From: Candidatus Omnitrophota bacterium | Lineage (GTDB): Bacteria; Omnitrophota; Gorgyraeia; Duberdicusellales; 4484-171 | Assembly: GCA_037146775.1 (NCBI GenBank) | Contig: JBAWWL010000001.1 | Coordinates: 69,464 to 133,463, forward strand | Length of the DNA: 64,000 nucleotides | Direction of reading: 5' to 3' | Part shown: positions 48,001 to 64,000 of the stretch, piece after piece | Layout of the letters: each line of letters begins with the position of its first letter | Position numbering within the stretch: position 1 is the first letter of the stretch | Notes under the pieces: model-generated | Told to the model about the DNA's origin: nothing | What the model saw: only the letters and a program-made list of their open reading frames with translations | Database searches by the model: none | Program-made: the position numbers and the translations under genes

Positions 48001-51000
48001 TATAGATTTAGGCTTAGATACTACCAGCCAGTTACACAATAAAATTTTAATTATAAAAGGCGCATGGCGTTGGGCAGTAAGTAAGCTTGATCGGGGCCTG
48101 CAAAAAAAATGGACAGAAGACGTTCTTACCTGCTGGCATATTCAAGGAGGTAGAGTTATTTTTCTTTCTTCCAAGGACGGTGATGATGGTATACGTTTCT
48201 TCGAAGAACTTGGCTATGTGAATGTAAACCCGGTAGCGCACGATCTTTCCCTTGTCCTTTCTAGAATTAAACAACCGTATTTTTGTTGGAGTGGTTGCAC
48301 TATGCTTCTTGTCCCTGACAGAGTCGTTATCCTCGAAAAGCCTTTTATAGTTCCAACTTTAAATACTCCAGATGCAAGATTAAGGCTGGCTTCTTCGCCT
48401 TTGCACGATAGCCAATTTGATGAGCAAAACGGCGGAGAGCGCGAGCTTTCGCTTGACGGTCAGCCTGTGTGGGCGCAGTTTAAGAAAATTCGAGACCAGG
48501 TTTGGGCGATATTTAGAGAGAAGAAAGACGAGATTGTCAGAAGCTCTCATCCGGACTGGGCAAGTGTCATGGGTTTTGTCGGCGGCAAACTTGGGCTTAT
48601 GGCAAATGTTTTGTGGGCTGATCATCGTACTCAATTAGTAATGGCAAAGCATCTTACTCAGTACATGTGTCAATTGTCGCGTACTAGACACAGTCAAATG
48701 ACTGCCGAAGAAAGAGCGGAACTCGAAGAAGTAGGAATTACAGAACCTGGAGTATATGTGGTACATCCTTCTCCTTTAGTAGACTTAAAAGAAAAGCCCA
48801 ATGGTAGAAAGGCGCTAATTTGTTTTATTTTACATGAGTATTTACAGCTTTTATGTGAAGAGCAAGGTTTAATTGATGCGGAATTCGCTTATTGGTTTGG
48901 TCATAGCGGTATTGAAATTATTGAGGAAGAACTGCGTTTTGCTCATGAGTTAGGTTGCCTTGAGCTGGTCATCGCTGAGCGCAGGCGTTCTTTAGAGTGG
49001 TTTAAGAAAATACGTAAAGGAATACCTGAAAGATTAGTAAAAAGATTTGAAGCGCTTTTACAAAGAGCTGGAAGCGGAGAACTATTTAAAGCCGCTCCCG
49101 GCCAAGGGCTTTATCTTGATATTGCAGGCCAGGGCTTAGAAGATTTTTATAGGGATTTTTCGCTTGATAATCTAAATTTCGTTACCAGCAACAGTTCGGA
49201 GGTTTCTTTGCATCCCCAAAGGCCTTACGCCTTTGGATTAAGAAAATGCACTGCCTGCGCTTTTACGGCTAGTGATGGTGGCATAGCGGTCGCGCACTAT
49301 AAACCGGATGCATTAATGCACCAGGCAAGAAATACAGAAACAAGGTTTGCCCCTTCTTTAGCAAAAGTGCGTTTCTTGGAAGAAGTATTTAGCGGGATAT
49401 TAGATTATCAGCTGCAAGGACCAGCATTGTCATGGATGAGAGGGCTGGTTATATCTCCTAAGACACCGCAAGTCTTAGAGACACATTTACGTTCATTTTA
49501 CGGAAACGAGTTTGTAAATCAGCTTGGTGATTATTGTATTACACCGGAAGATACAACCAATTTTGTTGCCTCTCACTTAAAAGGCGTAGCGAGTTTGACG
49601 CGTCAAAAAAACTATTGCGTTGCTCCGAGAGCGCATCTTAATGTTTTTGTTATGCCGGATAGACATGTTGTCGTAGATACCGCACACGAGCATGCCTTAA
49701 TTGCAAGAGACAGTTATGATTTTAATATAGACGAGTTTGATCAACCAACAACAATTAGTTCTTCACCGTTGGCTCAGCCGCTATACCAGTTTACCCCAAG
49801 GCACCTTGCTTTAATACTTGATATAGCCAAAGATCTAAGGGAGAGAACAGGGGAGCAAATAAGAAAGGCCGAAGCCATTCTTAGAAGTAACTTTTTAACC
49901 GACGACGTAGGTGGCCAGTTAGGTCAACTTCAAGGGCTGATCTCGGATATTAACGCTGTGATTGATAGGGTCTGCGAAGAAATAAAAAAATATTTAGTAG
50001 CTATTTGTCGAGAAAGAGATTCTACCGGAAAATACCTTATTTTCTCCGCTGGTTTGCATGTCAGAGGAGATGAAGACGAGGTCGTGAGAGATGTTCTTTA
50101 TTTAAGTTTGAGGCATTATTTACAAGGGCGTTTTTTTATATCTACGATCATTTCGTTGGCGCTAGAGCAGAATGCATTAAGCGAAGAAAGAATTATAAGG
50201 TTACAAGAACACTTTTATTCTATACGGGATGCGATAGAAGGTTTAGCTTCCTTAAGTGATATTGTTATAGAGGATGGTAACTCTTCTCGGCTTTTGGTGC
50301 TTTCTCAGAAAACTAGTTCGTCTAGTGTGGATAATTTTTCCACGCAGCTAAGACTGTTGCAATCTTTCGACGATAAAGAGCTGCGGCGATGGACTATCCA
50401 GCAAATACGCGATGCGTCAGTACAAACAATAGAATTTTCTATGGAAATTCACGAAAAGTTTAGACGGTTTTGCACCGCTGAACTGGCTGAAGAAGCGATG
50501 AGTATTTGGCGTCAAAGAGGCCGCGCATTATTGGAGCTACCGTTTCCAAACAGCAACCCTATGGGTGAAGGGCCTTATTGGAAGTCACCCATAAACCAAA
50601 TTGCGAGCTTTCTTGGTGGTTTGGGGGTAAATGAACAAGATTGTCTATTAGAGGTTGGCGGAGCAGATTCCCTGCTTTCACTTTTTATGGCACACGCATT
50701 TAATCTGCATGCTACTAGCGTAGAGGTAGTGCGCGCCTGGTGTGAATATGCCGAAATATACCGTAGTATTCTTATTGCTAAAGGTTCGGTAAGAGATGGT
50801 CAGGTAGAGTTAATAAATGATAACTTTATCAATGTAGATTTTTCTAAATATTCCATGGTTTATTATATTGGTTTAGGTGCATGGAGAAAGTATGAGTTAT
50901 TAATAAAAATGTTAACAGTAAGGCCTGGCTGTCGAGTGTTAATGTATGGTGATATTGAAGAAAAAATAGAAAGTCGGCTGCTCATCTATCCTTACTTTTC

Positions 51001-54000
51001 TATGCAAAAATTTGTTTTAAGTCGAAACGGTGAGCCTACCGGCTTAGGCGTTCCTCTGCGGGTGTATACCATGCAAGATGCTTCCTCGCCGCTTAGCGAC
51101 GCAGAAGATAGCGGTAGCGCTGATTTAATGCGCGATCTGCCTTTAACCTTAGCGCAGTGGTGGGAGATTATTGACAAAGAACGCCAGACAGGCAGACTTT
51201 TTGCCGGAATGGATTTAGATAATTTAGTCAGTGCTTTTGAGGAAAGTCTCAAAACACGTCCCAACCGTGGTGTCTACGCTATGGTTACAGCTATACATAC
51301 GCGTTTTGCCCGTATTGATAAGGCTTCAGAAATATTAAAGCAAGGGCTAGCCTTTGAACCAGAAAGCCAAATGCTCGTTGCTCTTGACCGGGAAGTATAT
51401 GGAATTGCAAGAATGATGCGCGATAGATTAAGTCCAAGGACTGATGAGGATAAATTTTTACACCGGGTGGTTGTCCCTGATGGAGAGGGCGACTGTTTTG
51501 CGGATACTTTGGGTTTTGACGGCCGCTGGCAGGTTTATGATTTTTCAAAAAGCCATGCATACATTGATACTCCCGCAGTGCTACAAGTGCTAAAAGCTTT
51601 GCAATGGAATATTCAAAATTACAAATATGTGGATGTAGTTATGCCGGATTTTTCACCCGAAAGAGTAGAATTAGCATATCTTGATTTTGGGCAAGTTTAT
51701 ATTGCCGAGGAGAGTATGTTACCCGGCGCTATTATAGATGAAAAAGATATTTTCTTTTTTGTTCAACCCGAGGAAAAGGCTTCGCGCAGCAAGGTAGTTG
51801 TTTGTATGACCCCTGCGTTCTTAGTCATTGAAAGAAGAGAGCAGATGCGTAGAATCAATAATGTTTTCGCCGGCGGCACCTCTTGTTTTGTGGCATTAGA
51901 AGAAAAGTATGAAATGAGATTTTCTGATGACGCAGAAGTCTCCAGAGAAACTCCCAGAGTGCTTTGCGTTTCTTTAAGTGAAGCTACTGCTCACGGCATA
52001 GATGTTTTAGAGGACTCGTTACTACGTGCTGGGATAAAAGCAGCAGCCAGAGAGATGCGCTGTCTTGATTTGCTCGATAACTATATGGATGAATTCGCAC
52101 ATTTAGAAGAATTAGACGGAATAAGCCCTAATGTATTTTGTATTTCCGTAGTTAATATGCGTACAGAATGGGCGGCACTAACCATTAGAAAAATTAGAGA
52201 ATTTTTTCCCGAAGCACTAGTTATTATAGGCGGTCCGTCTGCCCAGTATCCGGAACAACTTGCGGCATTAGTGGTTGATTTTGATTTCTTGGTGCGAGGA
52301 GATGGAAATGAAATACTTCCGGAGTTATTACGGCTTGTGGGGGGATACTCAAGACAAAGAATATTACCTCAGGCCGTACGGGAAAGGATTATGCAGCTTG
52401 CCGGAGGAATTATCTATCGCTCGCCTTTTATGCTGGTAAACCAGCTTTCACATACTAACCGTGCAACAGTCGTGCATTTACCAAAGCCTCGGCGCCGTAA
52501 TAAATACCATTATTTATATTTACGTTATGGTTGTCCGCATAATTGTTCTTTTTGTAATGACCCCATGGGCCATAAGATGCGTTTTGCCAGTATAAGAGAA
52601 ACAGTGGAGTGGTTTTTATACCGCTTATGTCTTGAGCCCGGAGTTGGCCAGGATATATTTGCTTTGGAGGAACGTCTCGAGGCTTCTGCTTGCGCGAATC
52701 AACCGCTTCAGTTTACTCAATTAGGCGGAAAAATAAGAATTGATTTTTATGATGATGATTTTGCCGCTGACGCCGCCTACGTAGAGGCATTTTGCGATGA
52801 AGCCATTAGGTTGGGTTTAGGGAATTATTTTGAATTCGCTATTGTCGGCACCAATGTGATTGATTTTTTTGAGCGCGGAAATCTACGTACCCGTCTTATC
52901 GATAAAATGTGGGATGCTGGTTTTCGCATGGTGCAATTAGGGACTGATGGCCTTTCTAATGCTGCCATCCGGCATAATCGCAAAGGTTACACCCTTGATC
53001 ATCACGTTATCCCCCTTAACGCATATCTACGCGAAAAGGGTTTTGTGGTTTGGCATAATCTGATTATCTTTCCTAATTACCTTACTTATGAAGAGGCAGT
53101 GGAATGTCTGATGCTTTATGTTTTATTGCCATTGGTTTTCCCACCAGAATTTAATATCGGTATCCAGGCAGCGCTCGGAACTCATTCCAATAATTTAGAC
53201 CTGATGCTTAACCGCCATAAGTATGATTGGGGAGAATTGGGTGCTCGAGTGGATTGTGCGATTAAAGTGTGCGGCGATTACAAGGTTCCCGTAGGTTTTC
53301 CCCATTACGCTTTGCCGGTTTCGCAAGAGTTGGCTTATACCGAAAGCGAAGTGGCAAGATTGGCAAAATTGCTTGATAAAAAAAGCATGCCGCAGATATT
53401 AGCAGAAGATGTTTCTGAAGCAACAGTAACGCGAGTTATAGGAAAATGGCACGATCTTGATCGAGCGCAATATCCCCAGATGTATGCTTTATCTGAGGCG
53501 ATTATTGATCTTGGCTGTAGCGGTATATCGTTTGAAGAAACGTTAATGCGGATTAAAAGTGAAATGATTTGTTCTGGGATCCATACTTTTACCGATTATC
53601 TTAGGCATTTACGCGGTGAAACTGAGGAATTTGCCCGAGTTGGCAGGAGTTTTGTATTGCGTTTTGAAAATGTTCGGCAATCTTTACTACAAGGTTGCAC
53701 TGAAGGTATGGAGCAGGAATTGGCAGAGATTATAGCCCAGCGGCCGGATGTTACTGATAGCTATTATTTTATGCTTGAATTATTAATCAAAGAGGGCAGG
53801 TTTCTTGAGGCTATGATGTATTTACATCGCCTGCGTCTGCAGAAATATTTTGCTCCTATGTACATGAAACATATGAATAACGCACTTAGCTATGTAAGAC
53901 TTAATCCGGCAAGATTTGATCACCCCTTATTATTCGAAGATTTACGTTTTCAGAGCCATGCCTTATTTCAGTGGATGATGTTGTTTGCCGGTATTGTTGA

Positions 54001-57000
54001 AGGGCTCGGTAATAAGAACGTGTGGCATCTGAAATTTCACTATGAAAAAACAGCCAGCCTTAATAAATTATACGATATTCTTCCTACTTTTAGCGTAGAA
54101 GACAGTAAAAAACTTTTTGATGATTTTGGCGGCGGTATCACACAGTCTTTACGCGATGGCAAAACCGTTTGGATGTTCGGCATACCTTTTAGTTTTGACG
54201 GGGGAACTCTAGGTGTGAACATCAATGATGCCAGGATTGATTTTGACAGAGCCCAGCCTTTTGAAATTGCATCTAGTTCAATCGCCGATTCATACCCGCC
54301 AATGCAAGGTTTTAGAGAAATCCACAGAAGACGCACACCTATCTCAGGCAAGGAATATGATAGTCAGCTGTATTTTGATAGTGAAAAAAGAGCAGTCTTG
54401 TGGAAGGTGGATAATGCAGTGTTTGTGAGGAAATCTTACCAATCTCATCCAAAAGTAAATTTTTATCTTGCCGAGCTAAATACCCCGGTATCTGTGGTTA
54501 TGGAACGTATATTTATACGTGATCAGGTCAACGGCGATGAAACGCTTATTAATATGTGGGAGCCGCTATTTGGACACTATCTTTTTACTCCGCCCGAAAC
54601 CACCGAAGGCGCTATTTTTGCCATACAGGATTTAAGAGAAATAATTAAGGATAGAGTTTTTATCGATTTTGGAGCTGAGGCAGGAATCTTAAGTTTTTTA
54701 GCTATAGCATGTGGTGCCAGTAAAGTTCTTTCTTTGGAAAGGGAGTGGAAGCTTAGAGATGAAATCAGGCATAACAGGAGGATTAATAATTTATATGATT
54801 GGCAAGTCCAGGATTGTCGCGGCTTTGAGAGTGTGTGGCGGGACGAAGTCATGGGGGCGGTTGTGGTTATTAACATGGACGGTTATTTCTCTCCGGAAGC
54901 GTTACTTGAAGTATTAGATAAAGGAATTCCTGCGGCCATAATATTATCAGGCGGGCATTATGCCAGAGAAAGATTAGATCCGGTATTAGAAATATTAAAT
55001 CAATACGGATTTTCGAACCGGATTATAACAATAGAACCATTAATTGGGATAAATCCATTAGAGAGCAAGCCTTTTGCTACAATCATTGCAACCCGCAACA
55101 TGCGGTCTGTTTCGGTCATTAGCTCGTCTGTTAGTTCCCCGCAAACACCTAGCTCGATACCCATGGCTAATTACTCACGACTAGGCAAGGCTAGCTCGTC
55201 CATAGATAATTATGATGAACCGTATTTAGAGCTTCACGTTTTAGAGGAATTGAGTCTTTTTAGGGAAAAGCTTGAATATGGGATGAGCTTTTTTAAGGCA
55301 ATTCTTTATCATGGCACAGGATCGGAATTTTCAGAATGGGACATTAACTTAACGAGTTCGCTCTCTAGCCGTTTAGAGCCAGCAGGTATTCGTTTGAGTT
55401 TTGCAAGAGATTATGCAGCTGGGTTTGCTATAGGAGAAGAGGCGAGAATTATTAAGTGCCGCGTCAGTTTAAAAAATCCGTGGTATGTTTCACGAACGCG
55501 TTTTTTTGCATACTTTCTATTTATTGGACAAGCGCTAGAGGAGCTTGCTTTGAGGCGGGGAGTTACTTCAGAAGATAAATTGTCGATTCCCGAATGCCGT
55601 AGCTACGTTAGGCAACGCATGCTAGAGCAAGGATATGACGGGGTTGTGCGTTGTGATGTCTCGTGTATAGAGGTAATCGCCTTTCATCCGCAAGCACAAA
55701 TTGAAGTTATAGAAGTATTTTGCGCTAGCTCAGCGATAAGTTTATTACAAGACACAAAAGAAAAAATTATAAAGGCGCTTGAAACTAAAAAAATGCCGGT
55801 TGATATAGCTAAAGAGCGAGCAATACCCGCGGCATTCTCTGCTGTGGATAGTGTTTTTGATATTCATACTCGGCCACAAGCATATGAGTTAGTTCTGGGG
55901 ATGGCTCTTGGTTTGATAGCTAAAGAGATTCCTGTCTGTAGTACTTTAGAGTATGGGGTGCCTTTGGCGATTCGTGATTCTTGTGCTTGTTTGTATGTAT
56001 TTAGAGAAAATATTTTTTGGCTTACCCGGCTTGCTGAAGATTTGTATCTTTCGTCGCAAGGCCCCATAGATCCTTACCAAACCCTTATTTTGGCGGGAGC
56101 ACTTTATGGCGAAGTTAGAAGAATCAAGACGTTTGAGGGTCTTCTTGAACGGGCCAGGCAAGATGTTAATAGAGCCAGGGTTGGTAAATATCCTAATGAA
56201 GAAGGGGTTATTGAAGTTAATATCGGCACGCAGGAAATTAGTGTTAACGAAGTTGATACAAAAGGAGAAAAATTTGATTTCAAAAATCCCGTAGAAGTGA
56301 GCCAATTTAAAAGAGAACATGGACAAGCTATTGATACAGCTTTAGGCGAAAATTGGAGAGACGTTCTTTTGGCTCAAATAAATCGTGATATTGGTGGAAT
56401 TATCTTGGGCCATGAAAGTGTTTATGTAACTTTTGCTCATTGCTGTGGTGGTACTGTGCAGGGAAGAATTATTGCCAAAGTCAAGATTCCGGCTTATAGC
56501 TTAAGAAAAGCTTTAGATTCAGTTAGCGATGGCCATTCTGCAAGCTCTCCGTTATTAATAATAGAAAATTTTACCTACTGGAGTAATGATTTTGACGGTC
56601 GTTACAGCGAGGATAGGGCGTATCATTTTGCTATTGGTGGAAAACAGGTATGTATTTCTGATCTTGAGTATGTAAAGATAACTATTCTTATTAAGCCTAC
56701 TAAGGTGATATACCTTGCAGTAGACCACAATACAAGTTGGTTCCATACTGTTTTGGCGTATAAAGAGGGCATGATCGGGGGTAATGAATTATTTGCACAC
56801 ATAGATCATAAGCAACATCCCGATGACCGCGCAATAGAGGCTAATCCTCCAGGTCGGTATGAGGATATTGGTTGGCACATTCAGCATTTAGCGCAAGGAG
56901 GTGCCAGTATTACCGGATATGTTACAGCTTTGCATAAAACATTTCCTGATATGATATTTTTGTTTCTTAAGCAATCAGATGGTGGTTCGGATGGCTGGGG

Positions 57001-60000
57001 AGGTGTTAGCTTTGATTGGGGTGGCTCAATTTTTAATTTGCCATTAGAGTATTTAAATAAAATTAAGATTGCTAGTATTGACTTGGATATGTTTACTAGT
57101 GATGTTTCTTCTAAAGAATTACAAAAGAAACTCATAGAAGTGCTCAGCTATGTCAGGGTAGGAATGGTTATTATTTCTCCAGCCGGTCCACAGGAAGCCG
57201 GTCAGCAACAGGCAATATTAATGAAAGAAATAATTGAAGATTTACTTGATAAGTTGATTCCTGGATGGAGATTACAAGAATTGGGGAGTAATGCTTTCGA
57301 TCCAACGAAGAGTTCTAGTGCTGTTCTTAACGGTCATCATGAGTCCAGGCTTTATTACCCATCTATAACTATTTGGGCTGTTCATCCAACTTTACGACAG
57401 TGCAGAGAGGTGATTAAGTGGGTCGCAAAAATGCCATGGCGCAAAACCGCTATAGTAGTGATTATTCCTTCAGATTGGGAAATGGCCTTAAAGTTTCTCA
57501 GAGATCGTGTTATCGCCAATCAACACTATTTTTATATGTTTATGTGTGAGCATTATATAGACGACGAAGGATGGTTTAATGAACAAGATATGTATAAAAT
57601 CAATGAATTGCGGCTAAAACTATCCGGGCGAGGATTAATAGCTGACGATCATTATCTATACGGTCAAAATACGCCTAACTGTATGAATATTATAGCTACA
57701 TGTCTGGCTAGAGGACTTATTTATAAGGGGCAATGTTGCAGTCCGCGTTTTAGCCGCAAATATACTCCATGCAAAAATTATTGTAGCTCAAATAAACTTT
57801 TTGTTATTGAAGATTTTACAATTACTGGAAGAAAGGGAATTGGCGTTCTTAATGACGAACAGCGTCGCGATTATACTCTTTTGAGTTTACATATTTCTGA
57901 GATTGAGAGGAGATATTTTGATACCGGCAATGGCGCTACCAGTTCTCCAGCTATGCACAGAAAAATGAAAGAAAAAGAACAACAAGAAAGAAAATCTTGG
58001 TTGTGGCAGGTTATTACAGGTCAGTTTACCTTTCCGTGGCTGGTGGGAGCTGACCAGCCTGCCGCAGCCGTCTCGTATGGTTACAGAGTAATGTCTTTTG
58101 TGATGACAAAATCATATCTTTTTAGTAGCCTTGCTAATAAAGCCCCTCCGTCTGTGAGCGTTTCGTTGGTCAGTTCTCCGCAAAAACCTAACTCAATACT
58201 CGCGACTCACTACTCACGACTAGATAAAGCCAGCTCACCCAATGCAAAGATCTCAGCTACGGCAGCCAGAATGGCAGAAATTTTTAACAATACTATTACC
58301 CATCGCAGCGATGTATGCCATGAAGATCTATTATTGCGCAACCGGCGAGTCCGGGAACTAAAAATATTTGGAGATGCTCTTGTTGGGCAATCGGGAAAGT
58401 TTGATGATCTTGATATCCTGGGAATAAAACTTGAAGAATTAAAGGCTGGTAAGTTTCTAGAAATAGGCTCGGGTAAAAAATGTCTAATCGGTCGCTTTTT
58501 AATCGACCAATTAGAATTTGATTCCGCTAATGTTTATGCGATAGATCCTATGATGGAAGAACCCGGCAAAGATTTTGATAATAATAGCGGGCGCTTTGTA
58601 AAAGGTATCATAGAAGAAATTCCGGAATTATTCCGGGAAATCAGCTTTAATATGATATATGCAGCATATGTGTTTTCCATCAGAAGAGGTTCTATAAAGT
58701 CCGGTTTACGCAAGATTGACCCTGGAAAAGCAGCCCGAAATGTTGATGTATTTTTGGCGCCCGGCGGAACACTGATGGTGGCAGGTAAAGCTATGCCGTC
58801 TGACATGGCTTGTGAATTGGCAAGTAGATTAGCCCAGCCTTATATCTGTCAGCGACCGGGAAATCAACATAGCCTATATTATTACACAAAGCTTCAGACT
58901 TTTTCTAGCTCGCCGGGTTCCCCCAGCACCAGCAATAGCTCCAATTATCGTAAGACATTAGGCCTGTTTCGGAGAAAAGATGACATCGAAGCATGGAAAG
59001 CGCTTAATCCTGTTTCTCCTATTGATGAGAATAAGTTGCCACGCCTATTCCCTAAAGGGGTTACGTATGGGTCGCAATGGAATTATTTAAGAGGTGAAAA
59101 GTATGAAATGAAAGGATATGTGCATACTGGTTTAGATTTATTAGTTCCAGCTTCTACCCAAGTAAGAGCAATTGCCGAGGGTACGGTATTTATAGGAAGA
59201 TATAAACACGAAAAAGGTGAATATGTTGTTGTTGATCATGGAAAGGGAATGCTGTCCTTGTATATGCATGTCATTCCTCGAGTAAATACCGGACAGAAAT
59301 TGGCGAAAGGAGATGTTATAGGTGAGGTAATGCATTCATCAATACATCCATCCCATCTTCACCTCGAATTATTAGCAAATATGGAAATATCCACAGAGGC
59401 ATTTCCGCGTGAAGGAGAAGATACGTTGGAAGATAAGGAAATAAACAGGCGGTGGACTTTTATTAAATACAGTCGAGAAACGAACAGCTTGGATCCGTTA
59501 TTGGTTCTTCCACAGATAGCCGAAGGAGCGGTAATAGAAGATGATGATAGCATTTTGATGGGTGCCGATAAAGGTGCAGGCTACGCCAGCTCGCCGTCTC
59601 AATCAGTCTGTAGTCAACGGTCTACAGTCAACGGTCGAGAAAAAATGCAAAATTTTGGTGATAGGCTATTGATTATACCTGCCTGCCGGCCAGACACGGG
59701 CTATGGGCGAAATCACGCCAGTTCATCTATGTTGGACAGCAGCGTCGGCCTTTCTGTGAAATATGTGAAATTTTCTTCGCCAGGTATTCCTTTGGAGTGT
59801 GACTATAATTGGCTCCAGCTGCAAAAAGGTATTCTTCTTGAATCTTATGCAGGTAATTTGTCGCCGGAAGCCAGCCGTCTCTTGCAAGAGCCGCAGATAG
59901 CAATTTGGAATGATACGTTTACTCCGCGCATCTACCTTGAATTCGCATGGAAAACCTACCCCCCTCAGAATAATCCATGGGTTAGTATCTTATACAAAGT

Positions 60001-63000
60001 CATCGAAATCTCGGTACGCAAGCACTTAGAGATTAAGGCGGGAACTAAAGAGGATGAATTTTTCAGGCAATTTTGTTATATTTCTGAAAAAGAAACAGAC
60101 AGTTTGGTTAAACCTACACAGTTACAGATTATAGGATTACGAACCGATACATTCAGGGTGCCGGATTTCTGGAAAGCTCAGCTCATTTGGCAAACCTGGT
60201 TATTTTGTAATATGTGTATGGGCCATGTCCAGGGTTTTATTCCAAGGGTTTTCCCTGACACATCTATCGGGCCGGCAGGCATTGATGATGCTTTACATTT
60301 AATTTATCTCATTGGTTTGGGGGGGATGGGTATTCCTGCCAGCCTAAATATCAAAGCTGCTGATATTAAACGTTATTTTTCCTCGCTTGGCTTTGGGTAT
60401 AGCCTGATTACGCAGTGTGGATGCTCCGAGCAATCATTACTCGCAGAAGAAAGAATTCAAGAACTGGTAGAGCATTATAAGGTCACGTTAGCGTTAAAAA
60501 CGCGTACAGATTACAATATCTATAAAGCCCGGTGCGATGCCGTAGATAAATTTAATTTAGCTGATGTTGAGTCGTGGCGTCGAGAGCGAGTAGAGCTGGA
60601 ATTAAGCGCTTTAGAGCAGCAAGGATTTAAAGCCGCAGCCGAGGTGCGCAGGCGCTTAGGGTTTGCCTCTGCAAGTTCTCCATCTCTGCCCGCCAGCTCG
60701 CCGGTGACTTCTAAAGAGTGCACCATATTAGTGCAAACTGATTTCTGGAAAGAGATTTCTGATATGTATGCATGGCCAAGAAAACCTAACGTTAAAAAGA
60801 AAGATAAATTGCTTGCGATAGTAGAGGGCCAATTTATTGATTGTTTACTACTGGAGAGAGTTCAGACAATATTGAAACAATTGGAACTCTTTAAATATTT
60901 TAATTATAGATATGAGGGGTTACAAATGAACTATTTCAGTAGTTTACTTGACCACATTATTGTTAACAGTGTTGATGCAATTTTTGAGAGAATTGACCGG
61001 GGTAAATCCGGGCATCCGCGTTATAATCCCCAAGAGTCTATAGCCCAGGCCCAGGCTCAGATACTTTTCTCTTTGTGTAAATACGATGGGGATGGCCCTC
61101 TGTATGAAGCGGTTTTAACTGATAATGGGGTAGGCATATCACTAGATCTTATGCGAACTTGGTCCACATGGACAAGAGATATTTTATTTCAATATACTGA
61201 AAATACCGTTGGAAGAGCATACCTGCCAATCCCCTCATCTTTTTCAACAAAGAATAGGGAAATCTCGGGTTTATATATTGGTCAACGCGGAGGTGGAATG
61301 GTGGAGTTTTTTCTTGATGCTGAAATAGGAAAGTTTCAAGTGACTATTGATTCCTGCCAGCCAGAGCAACGGGGTTACAGGTTTATACAGAGCACACAAG
61401 GTAGAAGAAACGTTCTTAACGCCTCCTGTGCGGCAATAGGCACCAAGGTTACTTTACGCGTTAAGTGTGCCAGTCGAAAAAGGTTTCAAGAAGTTAGTTC
61501 ATGTACTACTAGCCCTCCGGATGAGAATAAAAGGGGCGAAGCGATTAGTATGCCAAAAAATGTAGAAGCAGAAATTTTTATGGTTGATGTTTTGTTCGCG
61601 ACCAGCGAAGTCATTAGTTCATCAATTTGCGGTTTGCATGATTCTGGCCCGAATGATCCGAACGCGAGCAGTGCCGTAGGTCAGGGGCTTGAGTATGAGG
61701 TTAATACGCGGTTAAGTGAACCCGCTGATTTTAAAAAAATAAACGGTACTATTGCCGTAATTGGCGCATCAGGCTTTCTTGGTAGCTATATATATCTAAA
61801 ACTTTTATGGCTCGGCGCTCGCGTTATTGGGACTTTTTGTCACACCAAGATCGCGCCGCTTTTGGCGAATAATATGTGTTATCTTGATGTAACCGATGCA
61901 CGCCAGGTAGAAAAATTCATGCAAGATCACCGTCCGGCAGTAGTTATATATGCAGCAGGAGCTGTTGCATCAAAAGAAGAAGGACGAAATACGGAAAATA
62001 TAGAAGCGTTAAATATTGCCGCCATTGATAATATTGCCAGTTACTTTGGAAGCCATTTTATCTATTTTTCCAACAGCCAGGTTTATAGTGGAAAGAATCC
62101 ACCTTATACCGTTAATGATCCTGTTGATCCGATCAACCAGCGCGGAAAAATAAAGGCTGCCGGAGAGGCAATGTTGTTTGGTCGTCACAGAGATAGCTTT
62201 GTACGTTCAAGCGTAGTACGCGCCGGATTATTTTACGGCTATAGTATGTTTTGGCGAAGAATGGATGTTGTAGGCGATATCGTGCACAGGCTTAAACGCG
62301 GCGAGGCAACGATTGAAGCCGATAACTATCAGATCAGATATCCTGTTTTGATTGATGATGTTGTGGCGCATACGCTTGATATAGTAAAACACAGCGCTTA
62401 TGGCATTAGCCATATTAACGGTTTAGAGCCAGTCACAAGGTATGAATTGGCAAAAATGGTTGCTGGTATGTATGGAGACCTTACCGCTACTACTAGTGAA
62501 ACACTTATTATTCCTAAGCAAAATATTTTCCGCAATGAACCATTGGATAGTCGGCTAGTTAATACGTGTGGTATCGAGCTTACCCCACTGGAGGTCGGTT
62601 TACGCAAGGTGGTTTCTTACTATATTTGGTCGCAATCGGACCATCCGACTAGCTTGCTCCAAAAACCTTTAGGTGCCGGTCAAGCCAGCTCGCCGCAGGC
62701 CAGCGGCTTCGCCACTAGGCGAGCGAAGTCTCGCCTGTCGCAAAGTAATGAGGCGGACTCGCCAGGTGACCCGCGCAAACTTTCTTTTTATTCTAAGCTG
62801 CCAGATGGTTTTCAAAGAAATCGCAACAAGTATGGAAGGGCTTTATCCGGCGAGTGCGAACCGTGGGCGCGGTGGGCATTTAGAAGATTGAAAAATTATC
62901 TTAAAGAAGAGAAGGGGTTGATTAAGGAAGTGTATTTGATGTTTTTATGCGATGCGAAATGTCACACATCAATTGGGCATGCTTGGGTTGAATTTGTTAC

Positions 63001-64000
63001 TGTTGATGGCGTACGCTGGCTTAGTGATGGGACAATCAGTCAGTATGACCGCTTTAAAAGCTTGCGCGATGGTTTAGCCATTCCTTTAGTAGAATTATCG
63101 CCGGAGCAAAAGTGGTATTATTGTAGCGATAATGATGAGGTGTGGATAATTCTTGAAGAAGATTCTTCCGGCACCAAGCGCACAATTAACAATTGCGAAC
63201 GTAACAGGCATTTTACCCAAAACTCGGTAATAAGCGCGTCTGTCTCCAGCCCTTCGATTCGCTCCGCTCACTCAGGACATCGGTCCGCTTCGCCAAAGCT
63301 TCAGCGAGGAGAACATGGCAGTGCCTCTAGCTCATCGGTGATAGGTCCCCCATGTTTGACCGTAGCGCCGGAAAAAATTTTAAATGTAACGCTAGTTAAT
63401 TTGATTTCCTTACAATTCATAACACGTAGTCAATCAGGTCTTGCGATTAAGACTTTAACAGGTTATCTTGAGGCGAAGAAAAGACAAACAAAAAGAAAAG
63501 AAATAATAGTGCGTATGCTTGATATGCAAGAAATGTACGATAAGGTGAGCGATGCTCATCAGGAGGCAGGAGAAGATGTCATAGAGAGAGATTTTTATGA
63601 TGTTGTTGAGCAAGTGATTCAAGAGATTTGTGTTATCTGTCAAAGCGGCTATGCCGTGGTGGGCCTATCTATGAAATGGCAGACAATGCTTCCAGCAACG
63701 CTTATTATCCAAGGTGTACGCGAAAGATTAGCAAAGGTAAACGTAGCGGCGCCATTGTTTGTCATCGGTAATATCATCGCAACCTTTGGTTACGAAGAGC
63801 TTCTTAATCGGCAACCTTTTACAGACACAATAGCCGTGGTGGGAGAGGGTGAACAGGCGCTTGAGGCAATTGCAGAAATGGCCTTAGGGTCACAAAGCCC
63901 CCAAGGACTTACTGACTCTTCCCGTTACAAAGATATAGCTAATGTGGCAGTAAACATAGGAGGCAATATCTGCCAGTTGCATAGTGGAGTGCTGGATTTA
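2..64000 (+). CDS. Internal fragment of a giant multidomain ORF, partial at both ends, at least 21,333 codons in window. Mosaic of radical-SAM, methyltransferase, kinase, phosphatase, peptidase, dehydratase and membrane modules.
   Basis: Codon phase starting at nt 2. Manual codon-by-codon reading shows no in-frame stop across the window under the standard code. The ORF track has no + strand ORF in this phase. It has only short ORFs in + frames 1 and 3 and short minus-strand ORFs. Recognisable enzyme motifs occur in this phase along the entire length. Confidence 0.88.
3680..3820 (+). other. Two predicted transmembrane helices (FLWRLSLVVTIIFVPIMLSV ... ASILGIAIATVSIILVLT)
   Basis: Two ~20-aa uninterrupted hydrophobic stretches, flanked by basic residues. 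Confidence 0.6.
3970..5090 (+). other. Long coiled-coil region (~370 aa), rich in Gln/Glu/Arg/Leu with heptad character
   Basis: Translation reads ...IRQDLDRERLELEQARTRLDQDRRDWDKARAVREKEV...LQQKEEDLERRQRAAQQDLD...; low-complexity charged heptads. The antisense strand here yields the longest spurious ORFs in the track. Confidence 0.7.
6380..6900 (+). other. Possible class-I SAM-dependent methyltransferase-like fold (weak)
   Basis: Motif-I-like GKVILKDIGPGRGKII followed by acidic loop spacing. No further motifs checked. Confidence 0.3.
7400..8650 (+). other. Cobalamin-binding-like domain plus radical-SAM-like core (variant Cys spacing CX6CX2C)
   Basis: IRVFAGGPLVSAEGEAKTALKEMM...VLINGEAEELLPEV resembles the B12-binding domain of class B radical SAM enzymes. 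It is followed by ILYVPERGCRRNPRCSFCSF. Confidence 0.45.
10381..10775 (+). repeat. Intragenic ~125-aa module, copy 1 of 3 (DWPLILSTIEQNLLMQPCYRDE...LYTGITLSNLSQYLGYYTLVWEEF...ENLRPAKASSAI)
   Basis: ~75% nt identity to copy 2, with near-identical ends (aaggcgtcaagcgcgatagatgcc vs aaagcgtcaagcgcgatagagcta). Confidence 0.8.
12040..12415 (+). repeat. Intragenic ~125-aa module, copy 2 of 3
   Basis: DWVLILSTIDRPLLMQSCYRDEYVAVVVSTEHEEQKFLAVMLKQRIYCDDAATRGVLPAPILYTGITLSNLNQYLSHYTLIWEEFKRF...ENLRPVKASSAI. Confidence 0.8.
13020..13390 (+). repeat. Intragenic ~125-aa module, copy 3 of 3 (more diverged)
   Basis: DWPIILNNIYQSLLIQEQYLGDYVEVVVSADHEEQNLLAVMLKQRIYCDDAVTRGVLPVPVLYTGIILLSLSQYLSHYTLAWGEFRKF...EELRPRKDRSSS. 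Confidence 0.75.
14760..16210 (+). other. sdaA-like: Complete single-chain L-serine dehydratase ([4Fe-4S]-dependent; SDH beta + SDH alpha) embedded in the giant ORF
   Basis: The hallmark motifs are in the correct order and spacing relative to E. coli SdaA. They are FCGPSSSHTAGA (N-terminal beta-domain motif), VGAPTGGSCGIIPAVL, GSVGGCQAEIGSATAMAAAAL and GTTCEPVEGFVEVPCIDRNGLGAA (alpha-domain Cys motifs). Confidence 0.88.
17130..17660 (+). other. Class-I SAM-dependent methyltransferase fold
   Basis: Motif I DMLEVGSGDGSISDF, then acidic residue after beta2 (GIEVWPPY) and post-I spacing. Paralogous to the 50560-51070 domain. Confidence 0.5.
18040..18540 (+). other. Class-I SAM-dependent methyltransferase fold
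   Basis: AIDLGSGLGGSVGW (motif I), GADVQGVDILEEN (motif II), FDIALCLDIIYLMP, LKPGGKLAIHS (motif IV-like). Confidence 0.6.
19150..20260 (+). other. Amidohydrolase-superfamily, adenosine/AMP-deaminase-like domain
   Basis: KRERHTHVTMS (HxH metal motif), ISMHLGDF (HAGE-like), EGIVDRIGHG (RIGHG motif), downstream VYGSDG (TDD-like). Confidence 0.45.
20680..21160 (+). other. GHKL-type ATPase domain (HATPase_c; histidine-kinase/anti-sigma-kinase-like)
   Basis: N box EVFWNAIDHSPRGG, G1 box FNQGVGVD, G2 box EIGGLGLFLARQ, then GGTIEIYSTRGVGVLVAIVLP. Confidence 0.75.
21720..23300 (+). other. Helical region containing an internally duplicated ~90-aa unit (ALELFRSQPYRSIWPADAHLI... / ACDLFLREPQRSIWPGAERLI...)
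   Basis: Two copies ~1.27 kb apart with conserved RSIWP-x-A and downstream CxDPL motifs. Function unknown. A TPR-like stretch precedes it (21290-21700). Confidence 0.4.
23850..24250 (+). other. Possible bacterial Ig-like (Big) beta-sandwich domain
   Basis: Alternating beta-strand pattern VGKKFTIIVEILDVQGNPDVKVREKITFESSDSEA...HVFSITFGTVG. Weak. Confidence 0.25.
25745..26350 (+). repeat. Polytopic membrane module (about 6 TM helices), copy 1 of 2 (paralog at 35085-35705)
   Basis: PMRVIRIVSAIAIPIIAVILSVYFGGYYILLVESGFF...LFGGLYLAIFVFGAWYWFLNNY...PQYIVLIAVNSQILWSGFMMYWLESW. ~50% aa identity to copy 2 with conserved FGGLYLAIFV, FFI(Y/H)K(Y/F)LVCLN and PQYIVLIA. Confidence 0.7.
27608..27652 (+). 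repeat. Linker micro-repeat variant (ACTCAGTACTCAAGACTCACGACTAAATAAAATCAGTTCACCG)
   Basis: Same family as 30215-30266. Confidence 0.7.
30215..30266 (+). repeat. Linker micro-repeat: 3x ACTCACGACT-type decamers followed by AAATAAAACTAGCTCGCCG (encodes NSRLTTYDSRLNKTSSP)
   Basis: Direct tandem repeats visible in the sequence. The same motif occurs in seven other places, including a one-unit variant at 2531-2563. Confidence 0.8.
30400..31300 (+). other. Radical SAM domain (canonical CX3CX2C)
   Basis: LQLTYRCSFGCDDC, then GAGETT (GGE-like), VMIVTNTYL. Radical-SAM core order. Confidence 0.7.
32560..32830 (+). repeat. In-frame element B, copy 3 of 3 (diverged; hairpin 32596-32658)
   Basis: Conserved core ttggttgcggcgggatcggggctggcctacctttccgtggctggcggaggccaacttccctgccgta. 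Ends with SSPLS linker. Confidence 0.6.
34130..34900 (+). other. Calcineurin-like metallophosphoesterase (PPP/ApaH-type phosphatase fold)
   Basis: VVIGDVHDN (GDxHG), IYLGDYADSSDD (GDxxDRG), ILGNHDFA (GNHE), later LVLGHI (GH motif). Confidence 0.75.
35085..35705 (+). repeat. Polytopic membrane module, copy 2 of 2 (paralog of 25745-26350)
   Basis: TIRVMRLLSVVTIPIAAIMLSFYFGGWYIITVKSGFF...LFGGLYLAIFVYGAWFYILNTY...PQYIVLIAANLGILYSGILIYYLEEW. Confidence 0.7.
36721..36776 (+). repeat. Linker micro-repeat variant (TTCTCACTCCATACTCCATACTCAATACTCAATACTAGATAAAGCCAGTTCATCC)
   Basis: Degenerate ACTCMWTACTC tandem units ending in ...AGATAAAGCCAGTTC. Same family. Confidence 0.65.
36840..37860 (+). other. 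Third polytopic membrane domain (about 9-11 TM helices), unrelated to the 25.7k/35.1k modules
   Basis: Consecutive hydrophobic helices: VILALLTALTHALGFLFLGM, LAFWLFFFNLFTACIVFYLLA, IISSIILYFIFPYVPGAIILTFL, IVGVSIIAILGLLPMLA, LYGIVIGLMYGLI, VISYAVGLLVMALTVFFIF, ILLPFFIGITFFIGTWICAL, LPPLAVILGAFIAA. Confidence 0.7.
38150..38182 (+). repeat. Linker micro-repeat variant (CGCGACTCACGACTTATGAATCACGACTAATC)
   Basis: Same family; followed ~40 nt later by a TSSPLS linker. Confidence 0.65.
38240..39320 (+). other. Hanks-type Ser/Thr protein-kinase-like domain with substituted catalytic residues (predicted pseudokinase or atypical kinase)
   Basis: Gly-loop LGEGSYGKVFKV, VAIK-like YALKV, subdomain IX DIYSFGIVLFEM. 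The catalytic loop reads IVIKELKPDHIIL instead of HRDLKPEN (Asp to Glu). DFG is replaced by DLE. Confidence 0.6.
39440..39960 (+). other. gmk-like: Guanylate kinase-like domain
   Basis: P-loop FVVGPSGSGKSTL, then RNRLPKPGEEKRNSRVFVSAQEF...RGNWYGY, matching the Gmk pattern TRxPRPGExxGxxYxFVSxxxF...GNxYGT. Confidence 0.72.
40030..40640 (+). other. HAD-superfamily hydrolase domain (beta-phosphoglucomutase/phosphatase-like; motif I variant DLNHT)
   Basis: ALILDLNHTLY (motif I, second Asp replaced by Asn), KPDPELY (motif III Lys), VVGDSVDKDIEPAQRAGA (motif IV). Confidence 0.55.
40930..41420 (+). other. P-loop NTPase/kinase-like domain
   Basis: Walker A RLFGPPGSGKTEV. Downstream HDIDVLIVETSD is Walker-B-like. 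Confidence 0.45.
41620..42000 (+). other. Possible GNAT-type N-acetyltransferase fold (weak)
   Basis: HSVFVTLHNQHVFGDKRLYKFVGARLMQTAAII resembles GNAT motif A (R/QxxGxG/A). Low support. Confidence 0.25.
42600..43500 (+). other. Radical SAM domain (canonical CX3CX2C)
   Basis: LVIGPGVCSLGCEHCLQ, then WCIGEPFEN (GGE-like), ITFVSNLS. Confidence 0.65.
46325..47220 (+). repeat. ~300-aa module R, copy 1 of 2 (paralog at 59783-60680); function unknown
   Basis: LECNYNWLEAEKHILLESFSSPE...FTPRIYYELAYW...KTWLFCNICMGQAQGF...AWRRRLVKLELEVLSRQGFILATEVSKRLGF vs LECDYNWLQLQKGILLESYAGNL...FTPRIYLEFAWK...QTWLFCNMCMGHVQGF...SWRRERVELELSALEQQGFKAAAEVRRRLGF. Confidence 0.75.
47221..47535 (+). repeat. In-frame element B, copy 1 of 3 (~320 nt; contains conserved hairpin 47283-47348 and terminal ACTTATGACTCGCGATTAAGTAAAAGTAGCTCACCG linker)
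   Basis: ~80% nt identity with 57930-58250 over ~320 nt. Encodes SSPVTHRKTKEAEKQERKPWLRQVVFGQLTFPWLVGAGQPAVAV...KSYLFSSLANKSPP...YDSRLSKSSSP. Confidence 0.8.
50560..51070 (+). other. Class-I SAM methyltransferase fold, paralog of 17130-17660
   Basis: LLEVGGADSLLSLFMAHAFNLHATSVEVVRAWCEYAEIYRS... aligns residue by residue with DMLEVGSGDGSISDFMAHKFGIRATGIEVWPPYCEYANFLRD... Confidence 0.45.
52100..53250 (+). other. Cobalamin-binding domain plus radical SAM core (class-B-like radical SAM)
   Basis: ALVIIGGPSAQYPEQLAALVVDFDFLVRGDGNEILPELL (B12-binding-like), then LYLRYGCPHNCSFCNDP (CX3CX2C) and MVQLGTDG. Confidence 0.75.
54560..55100 (+). other. Class-I SAM methyltransferase fold
   Basis: VFIDFGAEAGILSFLAIACGASKVLSLE (motif I + acidic end of beta2), VVINMDGYF. 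Confidence 0.55.
55170..55200 (+). repeat. Linker micro-repeat variant (TTACTCACGACTAGGCAAGGCTAGCTCGTCC)
   Basis: Same family; single unit. Confidence 0.6.
57930..58250 (+). repeat. In-frame element B, copy 2 of 3 (hairpin 58010-58068)
   Basis: Encodes SSPAMHRKMKEKEQQERKSWLWQVITGQFTFPWLVGADQPAAAV...KSYLFSSLANKAPP...YSRLDKASSP. Stem shows ggtcag/ctgacc where copy 1 has ggccag/ctggcc. Confidence 0.8.
58380..58860 (+). other. Class-I SAM methyltransferase fold
   Basis: FLEIGSGKKCLIGRFL, VYAIDP, FLAPGGTLMVAG. Confidence 0.55.
59050..59400 (+). other. Peptidase M23 (LytM/lysostaphin-type zinc metallo-endopeptidase) domain
   Basis: HTGLDLLVPASTQVRAIAEGTVFIG (HxxxD), YVVVDHGKGMLSLYMHV, GDVIGEV, HPSHLHLEL (HxH). 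Canonical M23 motif order. Confidence 0.8.
59783..60680 (+). repeat. Module R, copy 2 of 2
   Basis: See copy 1. Both copies end in an SSP linker. Confidence 0.75.
60900..61420 (+). other. Second GHKL/HATPase_c-like ATPase domain
   Basis: IVNSVDAIFERIDRGKSGHP (N-box-like), AVLTDNGVGISLD (G1), GQRGGGMVEFF (G2). Confidence 0.5.
61740..62620 (+). other. NAD(P)-dependent epimerase/reductase, RmlD (dTDP-4-dehydrorhamnose reductase)-like Rossmann domain
   Basis: IAVIGASGFLGSYI (GxxGxxG), RPAVVIYAAGAV, PINQRGKIKAAGE (YxxxK region variant). Overall RmlD-like length and order. Confidence 0.65.
63620..64000 (+). other. Start of another cobalamin-binding-like domain (probably N-terminal part of a further class-B radical SAM module; truncated by window end)
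   Basis: VVGLSMKWQTMLPATLIIQGVRE...PLFVIGNIIATFGYEELL...DTIAVVGEGEQALEAIAEMA. Confidence 0.45.

Follow-up and report, generated by a model that had tools for sequence, protein, structure and literature searches.

An M23 peptidase among unrelated domains of a giant gene of Candidatus Omnitrophota

We analysed a stretch of 64,000 nucleotides (nt) from contig JBAWWL010000001.1 of a Candidatus Omnitrophota bacterium (assembly GCA_037146775.1, positions 69,464 to 133,463 of the forward strand), hereafter called the window. The analysis centred on the region 59,050-62,620, where an M23 peptidase, a segment resembling the GHKL ATPases and an RmlD-like short-chain dehydrogenase/reductase (SDR) domain follow each other on one chain. 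An earlier note, made from the sequence alone, had read these three domains as a cell-wall module for peptidoglycan and cell-wall sugar chemistry. In such a module the peptidase would cleave peptidoglycan, and the reductase would produce or modify a cell-wall sugar nucleotide, e.g. dTDP-rhamnose. All positions given below are nt positions of the window and all features lie on the + strand.

The giant open reading frame

The + strand frame starting at nt 2 contains 0 stops in 21,333 codons, whereas the other five frames contain between 827 and 1,901 stops. The resulting open reading frame (ORF; 2..64000) is open at both window ends, and Pfam domains are encoded in this frame from one end of it to the other. 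We found two shadow ORFs of at least 150 amino acids (aa) in the window, both of them short. The GC content (0.38-0.45) and the positive GC skew are both even across the window. Given the contrast in stop counts, the whole 64-kb window is a fragment of a single giant gene, and the region 59,050-62,620 lies inside this gene near the 3' end of the window. It is extremely improbable that the ORF is an artefact caused by an assembly chimera or by non-coding sequence. In addition to the stop counts, the more than 15 in-frame Pfam families in the translation, the even composition and skew, and a peptide-level motif that is written in varied codons (see below) all speak against it.

The domain map is based on a Pfam scan of the entire translation. 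In order of position we observed serine dehydratase beta and alpha chains, DOT1-like and class-I methyltransferases, an HATPase_c domain, a radical S-adenosylmethionine (SAM) domain and a protein kinase, followed by a guanylate-kinase-like P-loop domain, a HAD hydrolase and a second radical-SAM domain with an N-terminal domain. The map ends with a sub-threshold ART-PolyVal match, Peptidase_M23, RmlD_sub_bind and, at the very end, a B12-binding domain. The HATPase_c domain at ~nt 20,750-21,150 is genuine and separate from the GHKL-like segment discussed below. Intact CxxxCxxC radical-SAM cluster motifs occur three times, at nt 30,476, 42,686 and 52,532; Pfam called Radical_SAM at only two of these three sites. 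The match to ART-PolyVal, the ADP-ribosyltransferase of polyvalent proteins, at 55,300-55,700 (E-value E=1e-5, 26.8 bits with a Pfam cut-off of 31.2) lies 3.5 kb upstream of M23. M23 is the only wall-directed family that Pfam finds in all 21,333 residues, and apart from the RmlD-like domain no rhamnose-pathway family was found in them. Furthermore, the scan revealed no SecA_DEAD, C39, dockerin or glycoside-hydrolase domains inside the window, and none of the modules had a match in PADLOC (E<=1).

The M23, SDR and GHKL-like domains

The Pfam model Peptidase_M23 (PF01551) matched nt 59,120-59,380 over profile positions 2-90 of 96 with E=3.6e-18 and 66 bits, compared to a gathering cut-off of 28.7. 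This confirms the domain that had been placed at 59050-59400 based on the motifs HTGLD and HLHLE, and its core (59120..59380) is supported by Pfam, NCBIfam and PDB alignments. HTGLD (59,123-59,137), the catalytic His in LYMHV (59,258-59,272) and HLHLE (59,354-59,368) align on the HxxxD, the catalytic His and the HxH of the solved M23 structures 2hsi, 6jmx and ShyA (6ue4), and the five metal and catalytic residues are all intact. As all three motifs align to solved enzymes the active site looks complete and the peptidase is apparently active. EnvC and NlpD are degenerate M23 activators, from which the domain in the window differs in that its metal ligands are kept. In NCBIfam the top ranks were taken by the DD-endopeptidases MepM, Pgp3 and ShyC/A, with all equivalog cut-offs missed widely (48 vs 341 bits for MepM). 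The closest library relatives are ordinary M23 or multi-M23 proteins with 36-41% identity, and when the M23-to-SDR stretch was used as query, an index of 5.8 billion proteins returned only seven ordinary M23 proteins.

The domain thus shares HxxxD, catalytic His and HxH with the M23/LytM endopeptidases (MepM, ShyA/ShyC, Pgp3, LytM, lysostaphin) and can be aligned to them across the entire catalytic domain. In contrast to these enzymes the module in the window lacks a signal peptide as well as LysM, coiled-coil and any other domain for targeting or regulation, and it is located thousands of residues from either end of the giant chain. The module extends from 58,907 to 59,584, between an SSSP and an ASSP motif. 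It contains 0 cysteines where ~3 would be expected (p ~0.04), whereas all other modules of more than 100 aa in the 8,700 downstream residues have at least one; this lack of cysteines hints at an oxidising compartment.

For the SDR domain we observed a match to RmlD_sub_bind (PF04321) at nt 61,751-62,476 with E=1.8e-24 and 86.7 bits (gathering score 27) and a match to Epimerase at the same position with 59.8 bits. The best solved relative is MAT2B (2ydx, E=2e-16, 290 residues aligned), and this alignment extends the homology to ~nt 62,614; the RmlD structures 3sc6 and 1kbz were matched at E=1e-9 to 1e-5. The Rossmann motif GxxGxxG is kept (GASGFLG, 61,763-61,783), as is the NPPY segment, both of which RmlD and MAT2B have in common with the window domain together with the extended-SDR fold. 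The catalytic triad differs from that of RmlD: Thr is replaced by Asn in SNSQ (62,066-62,092) and Tyr by Arg in RGKIK (62,135-62,167), where the Lys is kept. Pairwise comparison with the 147 best homologues gave T or S in 145, Y in 144 and K in 146 of them, so that more than 97% keep the residues that are substituted here. The Asn and Arg were also seen in the MAT2B alignment and in a multiple alignment. The rmlD equivalog TIGR01214 was not reached (83 bits, cut-off 224), and a genome scan with the SDR alignment found only generic RmlD genes with 23-31% identity.

As the equivalog cut-off is missed, the best solved relative is MAT2B and the triad reads N/R/K, the domain is by alignment RmlD-like at the level of the fold family and not an RmlD. 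The proposal of an RmlD-like domain at 61740-62620 is therefore correct regarding the fold family, which both the PF04321 and the Epimerase matches show, and is not supported regarding the reductase. The most economical reading of the sequence is a dinucleotide-binding pseudo-reductase that would be catalytically dead. MAT2B, a paralogue of the dTDP-4-dehydrorhamnose reductase RmlD, is the regulatory beta subunit of methionine adenosyltransferase II (MAT). We found neither a MAT catalytic subunit nor a rhamnose-pathway partner for the SDR in the window.

The segment in between (60959..61456) carries an ordered set of GHKL-like motifs, namely an N-box (IVNSVDAI), G1 (TDNGVGIS), G2 (IGQRGGGM) and IGTKVTL. 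No family model matched it (Pfam including PF02518 and PF13589 at E<=10; NCBIfam and PADLOC at E<=1), and no homologue was found in the 5.8-billion-protein index even at E<=10. The only PDB matches were N-domains of TRAP1/Hsp90 at a sub-threshold E of 0.1-0.7. In the TRAP1 alignment IGQRGGGM is paired with IGQFGVGF and GTKVTLRVK with GTKIIIHLK, while the N-box-like NSVDA and the G1 motif DNGVGI are found upstream at Hsp90-like spacing. The N-terminal half of the segment alone gave nothing relevant in the PDB. A composite pattern of all four motifs, which was defined after the sequence had been read, has one match in 21,333 aa (nt 60,965-61,444) and was found in 0 of 300 shuffles in its strict form and in 2 of 300 in its loose form. 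A single-sequence AlphaFold2 model reached a predicted local distance difference test (pLDDT) score of 38.9, which is too low for the model to be used. Thus the segment resembles the GHKL ATPases of the Hsp90/TRAP1 type in having NSVDA, DNGVGI, IGQRGGGM and GTKVTLRVK in matching order and spacing, and differs from them in that GHKL family models do not detect it. We consider it probable that the segment adopts a Bergerat fold, and its identity as a GHKL ATPase is plausible from motifs only. Of the ATPase claimed earlier this leaves the ordered motif set and the sub-threshold TRAP1/Hsp90 matches, without any family model.

In order to judge whether the three domains belong together we considered the architecture of their relatives. 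An exhaustive HMMER search of 1.84 billion representatives gave thousands of single-domain hits, and the architecture was judged on the best 150. None of these matches more than one of the domains of the query. The closest SDR relatives (34-38% identity) are embedded in long proteins of 645 to 4,965 aa, in which the SDR adjoins APH-type, ROK or PfkB kinases or a phosphoglycerate mutase; among the close relatives inspected it was never found beside M23 or GHKL domains. Three of the SDR relatives that were looked up have a source name: HSA31335.1 and MCX5707435.1 are from Candidatus Omnitrophota and the third is labelled Atribacteria. As the relatives pair the SDR with kinases and never with M23, M23, the GHKL-like segment and the SDR are, judged by these architectures, not a functional unit and their adjacency in the mosaic is due to chance.

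There are observations in favour of a joint role in peptidoglycan and cell-wall sugar chemistry: M23 and RmlD_sub_bind are both above the Pfam cut-offs within 2.5 kb, and giant Omnitrophota genes have been linked to cell-surface degradation (10.1101/2023.11.21.568195). We nevertheless regard such a cell-wall module as very unlikely. The SDR has lost its catalytic Thr and Tyr and stays below the rmlD cut-off, its relatives are fused to kinases, and the best 150 hits are single-domain matches. Furthermore, punctuation motifs and an unrelated domain separate the three domains, and 21,333 residues contain no other rhamnose-pathway or wall-directed family.

Punctuation motifs, domain X and internal repeats

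A short peptide recurs between domains across the window. SSP occurs in 51 copies compared to 4.5 expected, and [AS]SSP in 28 copies, whereas 200 shuffles gave 0.63 on average and never more than 3. The copies can be summarised by the consensus [A/S/V/T]-S-S-P-[L]. The codons of the motif vary freely. Thus it is the peptide that is conserved, and a DNA-level repeat or scar was ruled out. Only 3 copies of [AS]SSP fall inside recognised domains or paralogous blocks where 9 would be expected (P=0.02), and two of these three are located at block edges. In the region of interest SSSP (58904..58915) forms the N-terminal and ASSP (59585..59596) the C-terminal border of the M23 module. The double punctuation ASSPSLPASSP (60671..60706, sites 60,671 and 60,692) precedes the GHKL-like and SDR block, which is closed by a further ASSP (62684..62695). 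The motif therefore brackets the M23 module, this block and both copies of a domain that we call domain X.

Domain X (59774..60718, ~315 aa) is an orphan domain recognised by internal paralogy; it is located between M23 and the GHKL-like part and had been overlooked in the earlier note. Its paralogue at 46,310-47,254 shows 41-43% identity. Both copies begin with SSP and finish with SSPVT, and they share a conserved WLFCN.CMG..QGF motif (WLFCN.CMG at 60,197-60,223). No homologue was found in the 5.8-billion-protein index at E<=1 and the PDB gave no meaningful match. An AlphaFold2 model computed from a two-sequence alignment reached a pLDDT of 37.4, so the helices seen in it carry little weight. 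Domain X also takes part in a change of order. At 46.3-47.5 kb it is followed by a basic segment of 106 residues (Y), whereas at 57.9-60.7 kb the order is Y, methyltransferase-like module, M23 and X. This internal paralogy indicates module shuffling or insertion.

Segment Y is free of cysteines and is duplicated at 47,225-47,539 and 57,935-58,252 with 59% identity, the highest of all internal repeats. A block containing a cluster of transmembrane (TM) helices is likewise duplicated (25,655-26,425 and 35,006-35,773, 48% identity, RV.R..S...IPI.A..LS.YFGG...). Further internal repeats pair 9,266-10,501 with 10,985-12,148, 16,880-17,737 with 50,306-51,160, 21,716-22,354 with 22,970-23,596 and 45,227-45,577 with 55,757-56,089.

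We are confident that the region consists of independent beads strung along a giant mosaic protein that has 21,333 aa or more. With the same confidence we give their order as methyltransferase-like module, SSSP, M23, ASSP, domain X, ASSP..ASSP, very divergent GHKL-like segment, SDR, ASSP and further modules, among them the start of a B12-binding radical-SAM module.

In two of the neighbouring modules motifs were noticed by eye. The module directly upstream of M23 (58,232-58,906) shows class-I methyltransferase-like motifs (LEIGSGKK at 58,457, VYAIDP and LAPGGTLMV) and has no Pfam match at E<=0.1. Just downstream of the SDR, at 62,849-63,034, we noticed a Cys...His...Asp arrangement (GECEPWARW, GHAWVEF, WLSDGT) that recalls the cores of transglutaminase-like or papain-like cysteine peptidases and, if real, would make the module a candidate for a processing protease. 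Neither Pfam nor the PDB supports this arrangement, and the PDB search with the module after the SDR had no meaningful match. The B12-binding domain (63,549-63,871) opens another module at the window end. The serine dehydratase beta and alpha chains at 14,775-16,130 (SDH_alpha 177 bits) lie in frame inside the giant protein, an unusual setting for an Fe-S enzyme of core metabolism.

Over-represented peptides were also found in the long proteins that had been identified via the SDR. The statistics cover four sequences (P0017, P0019, P0082 and P0016), in which KDGG, GARL(A), RSELR and SSS are over-represented, each protein having its own motif: KDGG occurs 8 times (0.12 expected), GARL(A) 7 times (0.24 expected) and RSELR 8 times (0.34 expected for its 4-mers). 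In P0017 and P0019 the motifs (KDGG and GARLA) are located just outside the Pfam domain borders. This suggests a general rule of one punctuation peptide for each giant protein. Neither of the two papers on giant genes mentions such motifs (10.1101/2023.11.21.568195; 10.64898/2026.06.07.730766).

Topology and deployment of the peptidase

The TM analysis is a simple hydropathy scan with a Kyte-Doolittle window of 19 residues (KD19). We observed four membrane-helix-like clusters at ~3.7 kb, 25.7-26.1 kb, 35.1-35.7 kb and 36.9-37.8 kb. The last of these (36878..37840) comprises ~9-10 helices with individual KD19 peaks of 1.7-2.5, and the other clusters reach values of up to 2.6. Between nt 37,840 and 64,000 no segment has a KD19 mean of 1.9 or above. 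The maximum is 1.83, and 1.62 in the region of interest, which agrees with the earlier statement that no TM segment occurs between 37860 and 64000. Directly after the last helix there is a basic stretch (GKNKKDH...) with 5 K/R vs 1 D/E in 30 residues, as expected for a cytoplasmic flank. As there is no TM segment after 37,840, the flank is basic, and the intact radical-SAM motifs as well as kinase, HAD and B12 domains are found in the same stretch, we infer that everything after the last TM cluster is cytoplasmic. An M23 domain on that side cannot touch peptidoglycan unless it is cut out and exported or the chain is delivered. The topology puzzle raised in the earlier note is thus real. It is also already on record, since a conflict between predicted location and cofactor needs has been described for giant Omnitrophota proteins (10.1101/2023.11.21.568195; 10.64898/2026.06.07.730766). 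The ways out that had been put forward, i.e. export or injection and proteolytic release, are reasonable, with some indirect support from the flanking [A/S]SSP motifs and the Cys-free M23 module.

The explanation we tentatively favour is as follows. The stretch after the last TM cluster would be made and held at the cytoplasmic face alongside its modules that depend on ATP, SAM, Fe-S and NAD(P). For its part, the M23 bead would reach peptidoglycan only on leaving the cytoplasm, either by cleavage at the flanking [A/S]SSP motifs or by delivery of the polypeptide to a prey or host cell, and once outside it would cleave peptide cross-links in the manner of MepM, ShyA and Pgp3, its nearest relatives. 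For the dead SDR, nucleotide binding or regulation would be the most likely role, and not the reduction of sugar nucleotides. Such a release or delivery mechanism is possible rather than probable when taken by itself. The description of the beads and this mechanism together form our best overall explanation, to which we give slightly better than even chances.

Several points weigh against release or delivery. The surroundings of the M23 module contain no signal peptide, lipobox or TM segment, and the window has no recognised processing protease. The helix count of 9 or 10 means that the cytoplasmic assignment depends on cofactor logic and the positive-inside rule. Cleavage at [A/S]SSP is purely hypothetical, and the motif may just as well act as a plain linker or be modified. 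The argument from the missing cysteines is weak, and the ART-PolyVal match is under the Pfam cut-off (26.8 vs 31.2 bits). Both ends of the protein are outside the window, where secretion signals could lie.

The strongest competing reading is an enzyme array that is anchored in the membrane and stays on the cytoplasmic side for good. M23 would then work on soluble peptides, for example Gly-rich peptides or muropeptide stems taken up or recycled by the cell, or it would trim the giant protein. The absence of a TM or export signal in the 8,700 residues around M23, the basic stretch after the last helix and the Fe-S, ATP and SAM enzymes on both sides of M23 would all fit this arrangement, and in a set of 916 long Omnitrophota proteins the most frequent class has TM segments only and faces the cytoplasm (10.64898/2026.06.07.730766). 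Against it stand the nearest M23 relatives, which are secreted wall endopeptidases, and the lack of cysteines, with its hint at an oxidising compartment. A role in trimming is also unlikely as neither a Gly-Gly nor a D-Ala-type bond is present in the punctuation motif; M23 was rejected on this ground as the protease that cuts the SSP motif. To our knowledge, all characterised M23 enzymes act outside the cytoplasm. We rank the cytoplasmic role, which remains rather doubtful, behind release or delivery, and a coherent cell-wall module far behind both.

It is similarly improbable, on a par with the cell-wall module, that the M23 bead is a decaying passenger like the dead SDR, in a mosaic gene that gains domains faster than selection purges them. 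The adjacent SDR has indeed lost its catalytic residues, many segments have no detectable relatives, and singletons make up 80% of the clusters formed by the sequences of long proteins (10.64898/2026.06.07.730766). However, the five metal and catalytic residues of M23 are intact, its score is well above the cut-off, and the stop-free frame of 64 kb shows continuing selection on the whole ORF.

A more specific possibility, which we consider unlikely on present evidence, is that [A/S/V/T]-S-S-P-[L] is a protein-specific processing or recognition signal and that the giant ORF encodes a bacterial polyprotein that is cut into dozens of enzymes. Such processing would release, for example, the Cys-free M23 for export. 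KDGG, GARLA and RSELR would be the corresponding signals of other proteins, presumably with cognate proteases, in analogy to viral polyproteins. According to West-Roberts et al. the cleavage points of giant proteins are unknown (10.1101/2023.11.21.568195); a polyprotein, if true, would supply them.

Known systems and significance

Multi-enzyme giant proteins of Omnitrophota have been described as 'Archaeovorin'-type by West-Roberts et al. 2023 (10.1101/2023.11.21.568195) and as 'class 1 multi-enzyme metabolic clusters' by Nielsen & Lui 2026 (10.64898/2026.06.07.730766). The protein in the window shares with them a length of more than 10,000 aa (here at least 21,333 aa) and clusters of TM helices (here four). 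It also shares the combination of unrelated enzyme families on one chain (methyltransferases, HATPase_c, HAD, radical SAM, kinases, peptidases), a high divergence with mostly singleton sequences and internal domain duplications. The same conflict between location and cofactors is found, and the named SDR relatives are mostly proteins from Omnitrophota metagenome-assembled genomes. In contrast to the described set, where SecA_DEAD and C39 are common, neither was found in the window, though both could be encoded beyond its ends. Neither West-Roberts et al. nor Nielsen & Lui mention M23 in their main text. By family, these giant proteins are the nearest precedent for the protein in the window.

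A second comparison can be made with the polyvalent proteins of phages and conjugative elements, the nearest precedent in concept. According to Iyer, Burroughs, Anand, de Souza and Aravind (2017, PMC5512222), these proteins join peptidoglycan-attacking domains with enzymes that work inside the cell (ARTs, methylases, nucleotide enzymes). Their delivery into a target cell has been proposed, and they are sometimes autoprocessed. The window shows the same joining, and the sub-threshold ART-PolyVal match upstream of M23 is a further likeness. There are also clear differences. In that article polyvalent proteins have 2-15 domains and occur in phage or conjugative contexts with MuF, type IV secretion system or virion domains (PMC5512222), whereas the protein in the window has dozens of domains and TM clusters. 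No mobile-element markers or other polyvalent signature domains (MuF, ArdC) were seen in the window, which also contains no flanking genes. The wall-attacking domains listed for polyvalent proteins include lysozyme, SpoIID-like and DD-peptidase domains, and M23 does not occur in the text of the article (PMC5512222). The likeness would thus be one of logic only and not of membership.

Giant mosaic genes have already been published and both M23 and SDR domains are commonplace, so the finding adds little that is new and mainly provides a further case of a giant gene built as an enzyme mosaic. It illustrates that reading neighbouring domains in giant genes as a pathway is unsafe: of the three domains considered here one appears to be dead and another is unverifiable. 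An intact wall-type peptidase in a stretch that is cytoplasmic by every cofactor argument makes the question of deployment concrete for an assayable module of 227 residues. The over-represented, protein-specific peptide at domain borders is possibly new, and it would be of importance if processing takes place there. Should the motifs serve for cleavage or recognition, they would offer rational points at which to divide giant proteins for structure prediction, proteomics and biochemistry.

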